Source: a virus (taxonomy: Duplodnaviria; Heunggongvirae; Uroviricota; Caudoviricetes). From it: a stretch of DNA of 26,300 bases. The notes under the pieces were generated by a model. That model saw nothing but the letters and a program-made list of their open reading frames with translations, made no database searches and was not told where the DNA came from. The position numbers were made by a program, and so were the translations under genes. Position 1 is the stretch's first letter, and each line of letters starts with the position of its first letter. Below are positions 1 to 3,802 of this stretch, piece by piece. Where the stretch lies: the IMG/VR virus record IMGVR_UViG_2693429677_000024. One strand, 5' to 3'.

Positions 1-189
1 GTGTTCACCGCCGGCAGTGCCACGGTTACTCCGAAACTGAATGGAGTGGCTGGCCCGGCATTCCAGGTTATAAAAGACAGTCTGACACTGGGACTGAATG
101 CGCTGACGCTGACGGATGTTACAAAAAATGCAGCGTATGGCGTTGAGATAGAAAGTCTGATGCTGGAGATAAATGCACCGGCAGCATAA
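1..189 (+). CDS. C-terminal 62 codons of an unidentified protein whose 5' end lies outside the window
   Basis: Open frame runs from base 1 to TAA at 187-189; the track's initial M is GTG at the window edge, so this is probably not the true start. Acidic, Cys-free tail that does not resemble a Q antiterminator. Position (just upstream of the lysis genes) fits the cargo genes often found between Q and S in lambdoid prophages, but I cannot identify it. Confidence 0.35.
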   Translation: MFTAGSATVTPKLNGVAGPAFQVIKDSLTLGLNALTLTDVTKNAAYGVEIESLMLEINAPAA

Positions 190-636: not shown

Positions 637-843
637 ATGGAAAAAATCACAACAGGTGTGTCATACACCACGTCAGCGGTGGGGACGGGATACTGGCTAC
701 TGCAGTTGCTGGACAAAGTCTCCCCATCCCAGTGGGTGGCAATAGGCGTATTGGGTAGCCTGGTGTTTGGCTTGCTGACGTATCTGACAAACCTTTATTT
801 CAAGATTAAAGAAGATAAGCGTAAGGCTGCGAGAGGTGAATAA
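637..843 (+). CDS. S: Class II holin (pinholin), phage 21 S21-type, 68 aa
   Basis: Protein [68 protein letters not shown] is near-identical in length and motif content to the phage 21 pinholin as I recall it (two TMDs, C-terminal KIxEDxRKAARGE). GGAG at 622-625; stop TAA overlaps the R start (TAATG). Confidence 0.85.
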
Positions 844-1340
844 TGTCGCCATCATTACGCAAGGCTGTTGCTGCTGCTATTGGTGGTGGGGCTGTTGCCA
901 TAGCGTCTGTGCTCATCACTGGTCCAGGTGGTAACGATGGTCTGGAAGGTGTCAGCTACATACCATACGAAGATATCGTTGGCGTATGGACTGTATGTCA
1001 CGGACACACCGGAAAAGACATCATTCCCGGTAAAACGTATACCGAAGCAGAATGCAAAGCCCTCCTGAATAAAGACCTTGCCATGGTCGCCAGACAAATT
1101 AACCCGTACATCAAAGTCGATATACCGGAAACAACGCGCGGCGCTCTTTACTCGTTCGTTTACAACGTGGGCGCTGGTAATTTCAGAACATCGACGCTTC
1201 TTCGCAAAATAAACCAGGGCGATATTAAAGGTGCATGTGATCAGTTACGGCGCTGGACATACGCTGGCGGTAAGCAATGGAAAGGCCTGATGACTCGTCG
1301 TGAGATTGAGCGTGAAGTCTGTTTGTGGGGGCAGCAATGA
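843..1340 (+). CDS. R: SAR (signal-anchor-release) endolysin, T4-lysozyme-like muramidase, R21-type
   Basis: N-terminal Gly/Ala-rich weakly hydrophobic SAR segment ([26 protein letters not shown]) followed by a lysozyme catalytic region ([23 protein letters not shown]). Matches the phage 21 R endolysin as I recall it. Stop TGA overlaps the Rz ATG (ATGA). Confidence 0.9.
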
Positions 1341-1774
1341 GCAGGGTAACCGCAATCATCTCCGCTCTGGTTATCTGCATCATCGTCTGTCTGTCATGGG
1401 CTGTTAATCATTACCGTGATAACGCCATCGCTTACAAAGAACAGCGCGATAAAGCCACATCCATCATCGCTGATATGCAGAAGCGTCAACGTGATGTAGC
1501 AGAACTCGACGCCAGATATACAAAGGAGCTTGCTGATGCTAACGCGACTATCGAAAGTCTCCGTGCTGATGTTTCTGCTGGTCGTAAGCGCCTGCAAGTC
1601 GCCGCCACCTGTGCAAAGTCAACGACCGGAGCCAGCGGCATGGGCGATGGAGAAAGCCCAGGACTTACAGCAGATGCTGAACTCAATTATTACCGTCTCC
1701 GAAGTGGAATCGACAGGATAACCGCGCAGGTTAACTACCTGCAGGAATACATCAGGACGCAATGCCTGAAATAA
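1337..1774 (+). CDS. Rz: Inner-membrane spanin component (i-spanin) Rz
   Basis: N-terminus [31 protein letters not shown] matches lambda Rz, followed by a coiled-coil-like periplasmic domain. Start placed at ATG 1337 (the track's upstream GTG is less likely). Confidence 0.85.
1536..1721 (+). CDS. Rz1: Outer-membrane lipoprotein spanin component (o-spanin) Rz1, embedded in the +1 frame of Rz
   Basis: AAGGAG at 1523-1528, 7 nt before ATG 1536. Signal peptide with lipobox VSAC, then a proline-rich mature part ([13 protein letters not shown]). Lies entirely inside Rz in another frame, the classic arrangement. Confidence 0.75.
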
Positions 1775-1806
1775 TTTTTTTGCAAATCACAAAGTCAATT
1801 TAATGA

Positions 1807-1831
1807 GCCTCGCGATGCGGGGCTTTTTTTT
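1807..1831 (+). terminator. Intrinsic terminator downstream of Rz
   Basis: Stem GCCTCGC / GCGGGGC (one G-U pair), 3-nt loop, then T8. Confidence 0.55.
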
Positions 1832-1976
1832 ACATCTGAATTTCACAGCGTATCGCAGCGCGTAACAATCCCGAGTCTTTCAGAAAGCTGAGCCTGAGAA
1901 CTGCCGTATAGGTGAGGACCTCTCGGGGACGGCTTTTCTGTGCGAACAGGCTCAACTTTCTAAAGGAAATACCGAC

Positions 1977-2417
1977 ATGAACAAATCATTAACCGTTCTT
2001 CCTTCTGGCGAATACCCGACCATGAGCAGTCTTGAGATGGTGGATTACATTAATGCTGATCGGAAATCCAAAGCGGAGGCGGAGGGGCTTTCGTTCCCCT
2101 GTAAGAAATATCGCAAACTCGAACACCGCAGTTTCATGAAGAAAGTACCCAAGGTCCTCGGGGATGCAGCTGCAAAATTTTTTGCAACTGATACCTATAT
2201 CAACGGAACAGGTGGTGTTGTGGAGAGGGATATTTGCAATTTTCCCAAGCGTGAAGCTTGCCTCATGGCAATGAGCTACAGCTATGAGCTTCAGGCGCAG
2301 GTGTATGACCACATGACTGAGCTTGAGGGTGGGAAGGAGATTAACCTTCTCGATTTCTCTGGCCTGACCGATATGGCAATCAGCGAAATGCAAAACCGTG
2401 TCGCGGCTGCTGAGTAG
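1977..2417 (+). CDS. Rha-family phage regulatory protein (N-terminal domain ORF, 146 aa) ending at an in-frame amber codon
   Basis: AAGGA at 1963-1967 precedes ATG 1977. The pattern SSLEMVDYIN ... KLEHRSFMKKV ... FATDTYINGTGG ... ACLMAMSYSYELQAQVYDHMTELE fits the conserved Rha-family layout as I remember it. Family assignment is from recall, not a search. Confidence 0.5.
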   Translation: MNKSLTVLPSGEYPTMSSLEMVDYINADRKSKAEAEGLSFPCKKYRKLEHRSFMKKVPKVLGDAAAKFFATDTYINGTGGVVERDICNFPKREACLMAMSYSYELQAQVYDHMTELEGGKEINLLDFSGLTDMAISEMQNRVAAAE

Positions 2418-2456
2418 TTCTCATTTGAAATGCACGGTCAAGCAGGTAGCGCTCTC

Positions 2457-2573
2457 ATGACTCGTCGGAAGAAAGAGAAGAAGGCCATTAAAAAGGCTGA
2501 GCAGCTTGTGAAGGATCTTATTCAGTTCAAGCTATGTGACATGGGGGACTTCCCTGATGGTAAACCAGCATGA
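2457..2573 (+). CDS. Small basic ORF (38 aa; 47 aa if started at ATG 2430), in the same frame as the Rha ORF
   Basis: MTRRKKEKKAIKKAEQLVKDLIQFKLCDMGDFPDGKPA. Its stop overlaps the next ORF's start (ATGA). Separated from the Rha ORF by a single TAG and 13 sense codons. Below the track's size cut-off. Confidence 0.25.
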   Translation: MTRRKKEKKAIKKAEQLVKDLIQFKLCDMGDFPDGKPA

Positions 2574-2773
2574 CTCCGATTGATTTCATACATAAAAATG
2601 TAACAACCGAGTTAATAAAGCTTGGATACGACCAAAACGCGGCTATGACTGGCGCTGACATGGCGGTGGAACATTACCGCCGTTGTTCACAAGCCAGCAG
2701 AAAAGGCCGAATTTTCGATGACTGCCTGTACATTGCAAAACAGTGGGCAGGTAAACAGAAAGGGAAAAAATGA
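2570..2773 (+). CDS. Hypothetical small phage protein, 67 aa
   Basis: ATG-initiated ORF coupled to the upstream small ORF by an ATGA overlap. No motif I recognise. Confidence 0.4.
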   Translation: MTPIDFIHKNVTTELIKLGYDQNAAMTGADMAVEHYRRCSQASRKGRIFDDCLYIAKQWAGKQKGKK

Positions 2774-3039
2774 CAGTCTGAGAGCCACTTTCACAACGGC
2801 TCTCCATTACAAAGCCCATCTACTGGTGGGCTTGATAATGGCTTATACCCTACACGGGATAACTTAACTGATATCCCTTTTAACGGATAAAGGTATTCAG
2901 GCCTGACACATCATGCGCTGTATCGTCGCTGTATTTCCGCATTAACCATGACCGTAGCCCGACGGGGAACTCCTCTGCGCGAGCATGCAGGATGTTGATT
3001 CATTGCTGTGCGACCGTGGTCGCACGACGCTGGTCTGTA

Positions 3040-3300
3040 AGATATTGAATTTATTGAGAATGAACCAGAGCGCCTGCGGGTCCTTTCCGGCGATCCGGCA
3101 GGCTACGGGGCGGCGACCTCGCGGGTTTTCGCTATTTATGAGTTTTTTTGAGGTGGTGGTTGTTGTTTTATCGTTTGATATATCTACTTGATAAGTAATA
3201 AGAAAGAAAAACAAACACAACAACCTGATGAGCTTTCTTATACGAAAAAGCATGTAAAATCAGAGGGTTTTACAAAAAGCGGGGTTGTTGTATTGCTTTT
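3040..3300. other. cos: cos packaging site: cosQ-like sequence, cosN (12-nt cohesive end GGGCGGCGACCT at 3108-3119), cosB
   Basis: 3081-3140 reads GGGTCCTTTCCGGCGATCCGGCAGGCTACG|GGGCGGCGACCTCGCGGGTTTTCGCTATTTATGA, which matches the lambda right-end/left-end junction as I recall it. The sequence from about 3141 to the terminase gene differs from lambda. Confidence 0.85.
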
Positions 3301-3324
3301 TTGCCGGTGGTTTATGGAGGAGCT

Positions 3325-3802
3325 GTGGCCTTTTTATTGAATAAAAGCGACATGGCCTCCTCCATCGGTATCTCAGTACAGGCATTTGATAAATGGGGTG
3401 TCCCTCCTGTTGAGCGCCGGGGGAGAGAGGTTTTCTATGACGTTAAAACTGTACTGGAGATAGATCGCGAGCGACGTCAGCAAAACCAGAAATCTTCAGA
3501 TGGTGAAAATAACCTTGAGGAAAGGCTACTTCAGGCCAGGGTTAATCTGACGGAAGAACAGGCTATTGCTCAGCGGTTAAAAAACCAGGTTGCAGAGCAT
3601 AAAGTGATTGATACCGCTTTCTCTGTTTTTGCACTGTCCCGGTTATCCGGAGAACTGGCATCTGTTCTGGACAGTATTCCGCTTTCGATGCAAAGAAAAT
3701 TCCCTGAGTTGACAGGCAGACAATTGGCTTATCTGAAAGAGCTTGTTGCGAAGGGAGCTAATAAATGCGTTGAATCTGCTGAAAAAATGAAGGAATTTGC
3801 GG

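Follow-up and report, generated by a model that had tools for sequence, protein, structure and literature searches.

The window described here is the whole 26,300-nucleotide (nt) stretch of the IMG/VR virus record IMGVR_UViG_2693429677_000024, whose setting is the late region of an Escherichia coli lambdoid prophage. The locus under study lies between the gene of the Rz spanin and the cohesive-end site cosN, the position that holds bor in phage lambda. It is occupied by a transcription terminator, a structured leader RNA, a divergent gene of the Rha family interrupted by an amber codon, a small coupled gene whose product has 67 amino acids (aa), and three hairpins named hp0, hp1 and hp2 (Table 1). 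The best matches of the window are E. coli chromosomes, three of which are at least 99.8% identical to it across positions 1700-3350. An earlier interpretation made from the DNA and its open reading frames (ORFs), called below the sequence-only reading, had seen here an exchange site with candidate functions in lysogenic conversion or regulation. The identity of the cassette components and the assignment of the main gene as a pseudogene are secure.

The exchangeable slot and its genes

Two conserved non-coding patches, 1806-1964 and 2804-2891, surround unrelated cargo in phages Sf101, epsilon34, HK106, 2B8 and Stx2 phage 1717 (megablast and blastn searches). The idea of an exchange site is thereby borne out, and relatives also carry minus-strand inserts, such as the YlcI/YnfO gene that sits past the hairpins and before cos in the related locus L003. 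For each patch there are matches in 176 phage records, which come from Escherichia, Salmonella, Shigella, Klebsiella, Enterobacter, Hafnia and Citrobacter and even from an Actinobacillus phage. By megablast alone at least 220 of the 5426 complete E. coli genomes carry the leader, unannotated in each case, and the window's own cargo reaching position 2891 occurs in 17 complete E. coli genomes among the matches listed.

The first gene after the 5' patch belongs to many classes in 91 leader loci, the commonest being Rha with an ORF11CD3 domain. The other classes are KilA-N with or without ORF11CD3 or P63C, T5orf172/MUG113, a Rha protein of 228 aa, ANT/KilAC, HNH_3 and the present type of 198 aa. 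Pfam domains assigned to ten cargo representatives are Rha(+ORF11CD3), KilA-N(+ORF11CD3 or P63C), T5orf172/MUG113, ANT and HNH_3, and the 13 cargo classes run against the profile library are all of phage regulator or nuclease type and lie on the late-operon strand. The cargo of the window is one of about a dozen alternatives for a single slot of lambdoid, P22-like and HK97-like phages. Mosaic breakpoints match the edges of the patches (1806, 1964, 2804-2806 and 2891). Comparison with relatives, which the sequence-only reading had proposed for defining the cargo, sets its limits here at about 1965-1976 (left) and 2774-2804 (right).

The terminator after Rz, also recognised in the sequence-only reading, is the hairpin GAGCCTCGC-GAT-GCGGGGCTT, with a 9-bp stem at 1805-1825 (6 GC) and a 3-nt loop followed by T8. 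The same hairpin is labelled 'terminator' in HK106, epsilon34 and HK639. The cassette unit is located among tail genes in a Klebsiella phage (L132) with the terminator still ahead of the leader, and the terminator again precedes the leader where the cassette follows Q (L138 and L139). It is the first element of the portable unit. In L134, L138 and L139 a canonical terminator, AGCCTCG-loop-CGGGGCTTTTT, whose hairpin is of the type seen after Rz, directly follows the stop codon of the 67-aa gene, and these cassettes are bracketed by two similar terminators in place of hp0-hp2.

No minus-strand ORF in 1775-3253 matches PHROGs (Pfam was run on 2942-3253 of that strand), so bor is absent; the earlier statement that the locus has neither bor nor another minus-strand gene holds as far as profiles tell. 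Of a hypothetical 58-aa minus-strand ORF annotated in the relative L002, just the 3' 31 codons, about half, are retained here; it lacks family support and was not counted as a gene.

The ORFs 1977-2417 (146 aa) and 2430-2573 (47 aa) are in one frame and are parted by a single TAG codon at 2415-2417. Over positions 1700-3350 (1651 bases) the sole difference between the window and the 99.9%-identical prophage of E. coli 2015C-4136CT1 is A for T at 2415, giving AAG (Lys147), and the intact gene of this strain is annotated as one protein of 198 aa (WP_021559711.1). The gene is also intact in strain 377323_2f and in more distant relatives. Given the common frame and the difference of one base, the 47-aa ORF is a stranded C-terminal module and no separate gene; as homologues normally have about 195-200 aa, this C-terminal part is a normal portion of the protein. 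From this comparison the window holds a private nonsense allele, K147amber (AAG to TAG at 2415), or possibly a sequencing error. As it stands, the allele would allow the prophage to make at most a truncated regulator of 146 aa. The two small coupled ORFs of the sequence-only reading therefore reduce to one: the 67-aa gene with its ATGA coupling stands, and the first ORF is the end of the Rha-family gene.

More than 2100 homologues of about 195-200 aa are present across Enterobacterales under the NCBI name 'Rha family transcriptional regulator'. Neither the 146-aa product of the window nor the intact 198-aa form has a Pfam or NCBIfam match. Twenty of 39 aligned homologues (61-89% identical) match PF09669 (Phage_pRha), with a best E value of 6.7e-6, and precomputed PF09669 matches exist for many homologues of the 198-aa protein. 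An AlphaFold2 (AF2) model of the 89%-identical homologue P0002 has an amino-terminal domain (residues 15-118) with a predicted local distance difference test score (pLDDT) of about 90 and the order helix-helix-beta hairpin-helix-helix, followed by long helices at residues 127-153 and 161-183. In BFVD this model matches models named Rha family, KilA and antirepressor (E 4e-7 to 4e-4); against the PDB it gives weak winged-helix matches alone (E >0.1), and sequence searches of the PDB are not significant. The modelled amino-terminal domain thus shares its fold with Rha or antirepressor proteins. The amber codon falls within the first long helix, and the truncated product would lack the C-terminal module but still have the putative DNA-binding domain.

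The ratio of nonsynonymous to synonymous substitution rates (dN/dS) of the 198-aa gene is 0.04 against the related locus L037, and the C-terminal module alone (about 53 aa) gives the same value of 0.04. In Klebsiella phages the module recurs joined to a Bro-N domain (51% identity, E 1e-15); the product of 2430-2573 taken alone has no PHROG, Pfam or NCBIfam match.

The claim that the small proteins have no recognisable motif remains true of the curated libraries, since neither the 47-aa nor the 67-aa product matches anything in Pfam or NCBIfam, and fails for PHROGs, where the 67-aa product is PHROG 4439 (1.5e-34). Its homologues form 33 protein clusters in Enterobacterales genera, with the invariant core HYRRCSQASRKGRIFDDCL. 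Its AF2 model is a three-helix bundle (pLDDT 85) that finds weak RuvA-domain matches in the PDB (E about 0.5) and no significant sequence or fold match there. With dN of about 0.2 and dS saturated, the 67-aa ORF is a genuine gene under purifying selection. At each of the loci examined, this ORF and the stop codon of the preceding gene overlap as ATGA, and that preceding gene ends in the C-terminal module of about 53 aa. The ATGA pair is kept in Klebsiella phages whose upstream gene has a Bro-N-like amino-terminal domain and where the pair is located between Q and the holin gene. That the module and the 67-aa protein are physical partners is a reasonable inference from this linkage. Its sequence shows no convincing ribosome-binding site belonging to the 67-aa ORF itself, which would depend on coupling, so that the amber codon 155 nt upstream should lower its expression too.

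In a Klebsiella pneumoniae contig (L138, positions 2430-3004) the gene combining Bro-N and the C-terminal module is split into ORFs of 152 and 70 aa, whereas in L139 it is intact at 191 aa. Near codon 58, the 67-aa gene of L037 contains an in-frame TAA. These sequences look like recurrent inactivation of the gene pair in prophages.

At the gene level the locus is a familiar kind of variable locus, partly decayed in this prophage. The main gene is a pseudogene and the first small gene an artefact, which makes the locus a poor candidate for lysogenic conversion. Regulatory-type cargo, the other half of the function foreseen in the sequence-only reading, is what is found; lysogenic conversion is unlikely, all 13 cargo classes being of phage regulator or nuclease type and the main gene being inactivated.

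Table 1. Features of the locus and of its surroundings (window positions; MFE, minimum free energy)
Feature	Position	Strand	Basis or remark
SASA/NanS-p-type esterase gene, 3' end	1-189		annotated in near-identical genome
Phage-21-type holin	637-843		
Lysozyme	843-1340		
Rz spanin	end at 1774		Pfam Phage_lysis, 6.9e-35
Intrinsic terminator after Rz	1805-1833	+	terminator scan
Structured leader RNA	1848-1976	+	MFE fold and covariance model
Leader, H0 hairpin	1848-1861		
Leader, segment A (CCCGAG)	1870-1875	+	complementary to A' (CTCGGG) at 1922-1927
Leader, P1 5' arm	1876-1896		
Leader, P2	1903-1907/1929-1933		extended by AGAA/UUCU
Leader, P3	1910-1913/1918-1921		
Leader, A'	1922-1927		
Leader, U-rich run	1934-1941		
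Leader, P1 3' arm	1947-1967		
Divergent Rha-family gene, 198 codons	1977-2573	+	interrupted by TAG at 2415-2417
ORF, C-terminal module of the Rha-family gene	2430-2573	+	in frame with 1977-2417
67-aa gene, function not assigned	2570-2773	+	ATGA overlap, PHROG 4439
hp0 hairpin	2780-2804	+	exact inverted repeat
hp1 hairpin	2804-2841	+	15-nt arms and covariation
hp2 tandem units	2843-2890	+	sequence and fold
Non-coding mosaic segments up to cos	2892-3107		breakpoint comparison
cosN, GGGCGGCGACCT	3108-3119	+	right limit of the interval, read directly

Structured RNAs of the cassette

The conserved leader 1848-1976, which is absent from the sequence-only reading, has about 130 nt. In its MFE fold helix P1 encloses the compound hairpin P2/P3. 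The Shine-Dalgarno sequence AAGGA (1963-1967) is inside the P1 3' arm, which overlaps the ribosome-binding site with every cargo type, and the leader ends 9 nt ahead of the cargo ATG. A covariance model, R1, was built from 68 leader copies. Each locus yields a single match of 115-170 bits; four diverged copies score 58-69 bits, among them the one ahead of the KilA-N gene of Stx2 phage 1717.

In the model-fitted alignment A5, 94% of the cells are paired and both sides change in 18 of 32 pairs, against 5.4 +/- 1.4 in shuffles and 2-7 in slid controls. P1 and P2 are recovered independently when RNAalifold is given 11 diverse copies aligned by MAFFT with no fitting to the model, and 13 of 21 pairs then show compensatory changes. 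Whole helices are replaced in some copies: the outer part of P1 is CACAUAG/CUAUGUG in L040b, and P2 is CGGC/GCCG in L134 and GAAAUAUC/GAUAUUUC in L040b in place of GCCG/CGGC. Comparative evidence thus argues that the leader helices are kept by compensatory changes, and there is good support for conserved structure in both the leader and hp1.

Segment A lies just 5' of P1 and is complementary to A', on the 3' side of the internal loop between P2 and P3. The helix A-A' would cross P1 and P2 and, as A abuts P1 directly, it is incompatible with full P1. Eight complementary versions occur over the leader types: CCCGAG/CUCGGG, CGAGAG/CUCUCG, CCAAGAG/CUCUUGG, CCUAGAG/CUCUGGG, AGAGAG/CUCUCU, CUCAGAA/UUCUGAG, CACCGA/UCGGUG and CGUCGA/UCGACG. 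They include one U.G variant, and the last two differ within the 1717-like subgroup. When the transcript is made to end at A', A-A' is in the MFE fold of 7 of 8 types; it is missing from the full-length MFE fold, in which P1/P2/P3 form and the ribosome-binding site is paired, and any fold with A-A' is worse than this one by 12-18 kcal/mol. In these predictions the behaviour has the signature of co-transcriptional (kinetic) folding or of a factor-dependent switch.

Two further candidate elements were discarded. A leader peptide starting at the conserved GUG after P2 was rejected because frames and stops vary between types, and a second nascent helix, UUUCAG/CUGAGA, was dropped as it is not kept in type 3 or in L040b. 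Rfam 15 gives no match to the leader at E <=10; Rfam searches of 3.2 kb and of two narrower segments return chance-level matches only (OmrA-B, isrJ and asX2 on the Rz terminator, plus DUF2815 RNA with E 2.2). An IMG/VR search for further 1717-type leaders by the pattern TGCGRNCAARGGTTCAT retrieved unrelated sequences only. No site matching the consensus for integration host factor (IHF) with at most one mismatch is present in 1775-1976, near-consensus sites being confined to coding sequence or to the cosB region. No description of the leader or of hp1 was found in open-access text, and their architecture, common to hundreds of phages, appears undescribed.

On the 3' side of the cassette, segment 2774-2900 folds with -43.2 kcal/mol compared to -23.8 +/- 3.1 for shuffled sequences (z = -6.3), and none of 200 shuffles is as good. 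The three stem-loops of the sequence-only reading are present where it had placed them, GGGATA/TATCCC lying at 2856-2861/2872-2877, and none has a proper U run. They are not peculiar to this prophage, being members of widespread strand-specific RNA hairpin families. The first, hp0, has an exact 7-bp stem GAGAGCC/GGCTCTC (2780-2786/2798-2804) closing a conserved 11-nt loop, ACUUUCACAAC. It follows many different upstream sequences, and its variants GGCTTTC and GGCTCTT pair by G.U on this strand only.

The stem AAGCCCA/TGGGCTT of hp1 (2812-2818/2827-2833) extends to arms of 15 nt at 2804-2818/2827-2841. Its flanks, CAUUA-CA...GA-UAAUG, are conserved and the inner stem varies. Among 25 distinct variants both sides change in 13 of 14 pairs, many of them with G.U, and the covariation score is 0.69 against 0.25 in shuffles and 0.06-0.13 in slid controls. 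The fetched loci contain 112 copies of hp1, of which 109 are intergenic, typically 0-6 nt past a stop codon; in the 88 loci that the leader orients, the late-operon strand has every copy and the other strand has none. Homology with P22-like, HK97-like and Stx phages begins exactly at the 5' edge of hp1. In the IMG/VR contig L042 near-identical copies of hp1, CATTACAGCAGGCATTCACTGA[A/G]TGCCTGTGATAATG, lie 503 nt before and 523 nt after the 3' end of the leader, as direct repeats around leader and cargo. Such an arrangement is a hint that an exchangeable unit has hp1 at each end.

Tandem UAUCCC-loop-GGGAUAA units at 2843-2862 and 2872-2890 make up hp2, and the GGGATA/TATCCC stem links the two units. 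Variants with 7-bp UAUCCCC/GGGGAUA units are found at other loci, and hp2 is labelled 'terminator' in phage Ayreon. In the terminator scan hp0, hp1 and hp2 all fail; hp0 and hp1 have no U run and the second unit of hp2 is followed by UUUU-AA only. Rfam 15 gives no match to the 3' hairpins at permissive thresholds.

Proposed expression of the cassette and rival readings

We lean towards reading the locus as a portable late-operon cassette with late, Q-dependent expression, in which RNA structure throttles translation. The unit comprises, in this order, the terminator, the leader of about 130 nt, the Rha-family regulator, the coupled 67-aa gene and three strand-specific hairpins; it is found on the late-operon strand in every locus. 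Polymerase modified by Q would read through the Rz terminator and transcribe the cassette within the late operon. On the nascent leader, A would pair with A' in a short-lived fold that blocks P2 and P1's outer part. After synthesis of the 3' arm the leader would collapse to the far more stable P1/P2/P3 fold, in which the ribosome-binding site is buried. Translation of the potentially harmful regulator would then be restricted to a brief window or a low level, or would await a factor that reopens the leader. The downstream hairpins may act on the RNA, in processing or protection of its 3' end, and at the DNA level they may serve also as homology patches for exchange of cargo. In the window the amber codon would in addition cut expression of the 67-aa gene through lost coupling.

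Several points weigh against this interpretation. Every functional RNA step in it is drawn from sequence and thermodynamic prediction. The leader diversity amounts to about 8-10 independent types, most copies being more than 85% alike, so that the covariation counts rest on few events, and alignment A5 was fitted to the model. MFE stability of the leader is ordinary for its composition (z = -1.45). For A-A' the p values per type from composition-preserving shuffles are about 0.006-0.26, which is weakly significant, and the helix of the 1717 type taken alone is not significant; A-A' could instead be a pseudoknot in one functional fold. The hp1 variants were gathered with a filter requiring pairing, which makes the percentage paired uninformative and leaves the covariation informative. 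Covariation of hp0 is weak, and the sequence of hp2 is invariant, so that an RNA role of hp2 is indistinguishable from a role as DNA site. The TAG at 2415 might be a sequencing error in the source record. Finally, with no IHF site in the leader, the reported regulation of rha by IHF stays unexplained.

A broader proposition, possible and held tentatively, is that the leader represents an undescribed family of RNA switches. Competition between A-A' and P1 would gate translation, and perhaps transcription, of Rha, KilA-N, Bro-N, ANT and T5orf172 regulators in phages of enterobacteria and of some Pasteurellaceae; together with the strand-specific hp1 it would define a cassette system with structured RNAs that serve as recombination joints as well.

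It is unlikely that the cassette is an independently expressed moron, driven in the lysogen by a sigma-70 promoter of its own between the Rz terminator and the leader and conferring a phenotype of conversion or regulation. The change of cargo within constant flanks gives the variable presence of a moron, and the terminator would insulate the gene from upstream transcription; a terminator of its own downstream was not found in the scan of hp0-hp2. The promoter-like site TTCACA-16-AACAAT at 1842-1869 could serve, and the diverged copy L075b has a perfect TATAAT at the equivalent place, but the match is 9/12, the scan yields 2 sites against a chance expectation of 2.3, and the leader types do not conserve the site. 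Its -35 element is missing in most of them, and in several the T run of the terminator abuts H0, so that a -35 could not be accommodated. These findings speak against independent expression in the lysogen. A transcript from this site would moreover miss segment A, whose pairing is conserved. Clear morons occupy the site in other phages (YlcI/YnfO, and bor of lambda), yet all identified cargo of the cassette is of phage regulator or nuclease type, with none of surface or virulence type, and the gene is knocked out in the window.

A dual leader of the IsrK/c4 type is improbable as well. Transcription would stop at P2 and the U run to give an RNA of about 60-90 nt, and the read-through mRNA would be silent unless opened in trans by that or another RNA. 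P2 (GCCGU/ACGGC) is indeed followed by UUUUCUGUG, but the P2/P3 compound hairpin fails simple terminator criteria, the U run pairs with upstream GAGAA in the MFE fold and covaries with it (GGGAAA/UUUCCC in L009b), and it is lost in L075b (CUAUCUCUGUG). The full-length fold does hide the ribosome-binding site, and this logic is demonstrated for isrK-orf45-anrP of Gifsy-1, located after Q (PMC4825925), as the Klebsiella copies of the cassette are likewise just after Q. The leader has however no small ORF like orf45 and no homology to the isrK, C4 and c4-a1b1 models.

We consider it quite improbable that a ligand or protein is sensed, a cellular or phage factor stabilising the A-A' form and so turning translation on. 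Two mutually exclusive pairings are conserved, and the fold that would correspond to the ON state appears too unstable unaided, given the gap of 12-18 kcal/mol; the encoded protein is a poor choice for such a factor in view of the diversity of cargo, which argues against autoregulation, and no candidate ligand or binding protein is known. Unpaired stretches, GAGCCUGAGAA and the GUG-containing junction, are strongly conserved, but these sequences are lost in the most diverged copies (1717, L134, L136 and L040b).

That the flanks are kept solely as linkers for module exchange, their helices being incidental palindromes, is very improbable: breakpoints at the patch edges 1806, 1964, 2804-2806 and 2891, the hp1 copies bracketing the cassette in L042 and the high similarity of the patches across distant phages speak for linkers, but compensatory double changes preserve the pairing of P1, P2, P3, A-A' and hp1, a G.U pair read on the complementary strand would become a C.A mismatch, hp1 is on the opposite strand in none of the 88 oriented loci, and the P1 3' arm overlaps the ribosome-binding site whatever the cargo. 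A linker role and an RNA role are not mutually exclusive.

Of the accessory genes of temperate phages that lack an explanation, those of Rha, KilA-N and antirepressor type are among the commonest. The common structured leader would offer a testable control point for unrelated cargo in lambdoid, P22-like, HK97-like and Stx phages. The conserved flanks give exact cargo boundaries, useful for prophage annotation and for the study of module exchange.

Surroundings of the cassette and comparison with known systems

The Rha-family gene starts 203 nt past Rz, on the same strand and ahead of cos and of the Nu1-type gene. The sequence of cosN is identical to the known cohesive end of lambda, and linear phage records terminate at this site, 2B8 among them. 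Downstream of cosN are the small terminase gene of Nu1 type (Pfam 5.1e-21) and then the large terminase gene. To the right of the cassette, mosaic breakpoints are found at about 2891, 2992 and 3141. The segment up to 2992 is common to Stx2 phage 1717, 2B8, L002 and L003, and a lambda-like right end begins at about 2992; ORFs on either strand of 2892-3107 have no family matches. A perfect palindrome, GTGCGACC-GT-GGTCGCAC, is present at 3008-3025, about 85 nt before cosN. Lambda-like homology ends at about 3141, and the cosB-like region 3143-3300 is unlike that of lambda. It contains GGTTGTTGT at 3158-3166 and 3283-3291 and an inverted copy at 3217-3225, which are candidate R sites of the small terminase, and two IHF-consensus sites with one mismatch each on the minus strand (3168-3180 and 3181-3193).

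At the left end of the window, the 450-nt non-coding stretch from the esterase end to the holin gene has two copies, 150 nt apart (191-235 and 341-385), of an arrangement of A-run, GC-rich hairpin and AAAAGG. The hairpins are GCCAGCG...CGCTGGC and GCCAGCAC...GTGCTGGC, and neither copy has an Rfam match. SASA-family esterase genes usually come after stx in Stx phages, for example in phage 1717.

Among the closest known systems is rha of phages phi80 and P22. No mechanism is known for the rha phenotype, which has been on record since the 1980s. In these phages rha is reported to be a late-operon gene that is regulated by IHF and harmful to phage growth without it (cited in PMC4936722). It occupies the same kind of slot in the late operon, after lysis and before packaging genes (PMC4936722). 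The protein family is also the same by NCBI name, by PF09669 in 20 of 39 homologues and by fold, and typical Rha+ORF11CD3 genes stand behind the same leader in most related loci. In contrast to phi80 and P22, the 198-aa subfamily falls below Pfam and NCBIfam detection and has its own C-terminal module in place of ORF11CD3; the gene is here paired with the 67-aa gene and truncated by an amber codon, and the leader has no IHF site.

The described system nearest in function is the isrK-orf45-anrP locus of Gifsy-1, which belongs to the P1 c4-icd-ant family (Rfam). In it, alternative leader folds silence or permit an antirepressor-like gene after Q, with the involvement of an upstream small ORF and a trans-acting short RNA (PMC4825925). 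This locus and c4-icd-ant of P1 and P7 resemble the present cassette by an antirepressor-type gene placed in the lambdoid late region behind an RNA leader whose stable fold silences it (PMC4825925). Unlike them, the cassette has no conserved ORF of the icd/orf45 kind between leader and cargo start. Homology to IsrK or C4 was rejected: the models of isrK (RF01394), C4 (RF01695) and c4-a1b1 (RF03163) all match Gifsy-1, the positive control, and none matches in the window at E <=5 to 10; conversely, R1 gives nothing significant at the isrK locus of Gifsy-1. Elsewhere in Gifsy-1 (L140), at 33272-33382 on the minus strand downstream of isrJ, a weak R1 match (E 0.14) has an H0-like hairpin and CCAUAGAGCCUUUCAGAAG and lacks P2/P3; this segment may be a remnant of the leader.

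The KilA-N genes that follow Rz in HK620 and Stx2 phage 1717, of the KilA-N/Bro-N/T5orf172/ANT group of regulators, share the slot and its flanks. Stx2 phage 1717 and the Klebsiella phages carry a diverged copy of the leader, and 1717 has hp1-hp2 downstream as well. These regulators differ by other amino-terminal DNA-binding domains, and their small downstream genes (HK620p39-like) are unrelated to the 67-aa protein. The bor gene of lambda and the YlcI/YnfO genes of DLP12/Qin-type prophages occupy the same variable map position; they are minus-strand genes expressed independently, whereas the cargo described here is co-oriented with the late operon.

Two classical RNA systems provide analogies alone, with no sequence relationship in either case. 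The ribosome-binding site of the maturation gene of phage MS2 is open on nascent RNA only, before long-distance pairing, and such kinetic control is like the predicted behaviour of the leader. Phage T7 has intercistronic RNase III hairpins with an internal loop and a conserved shape, which hp1 may be said to resemble. As a unit, the cassette system proposed for the leader and hp1 would compare loosely to gene cassettes bounded by structured sites.

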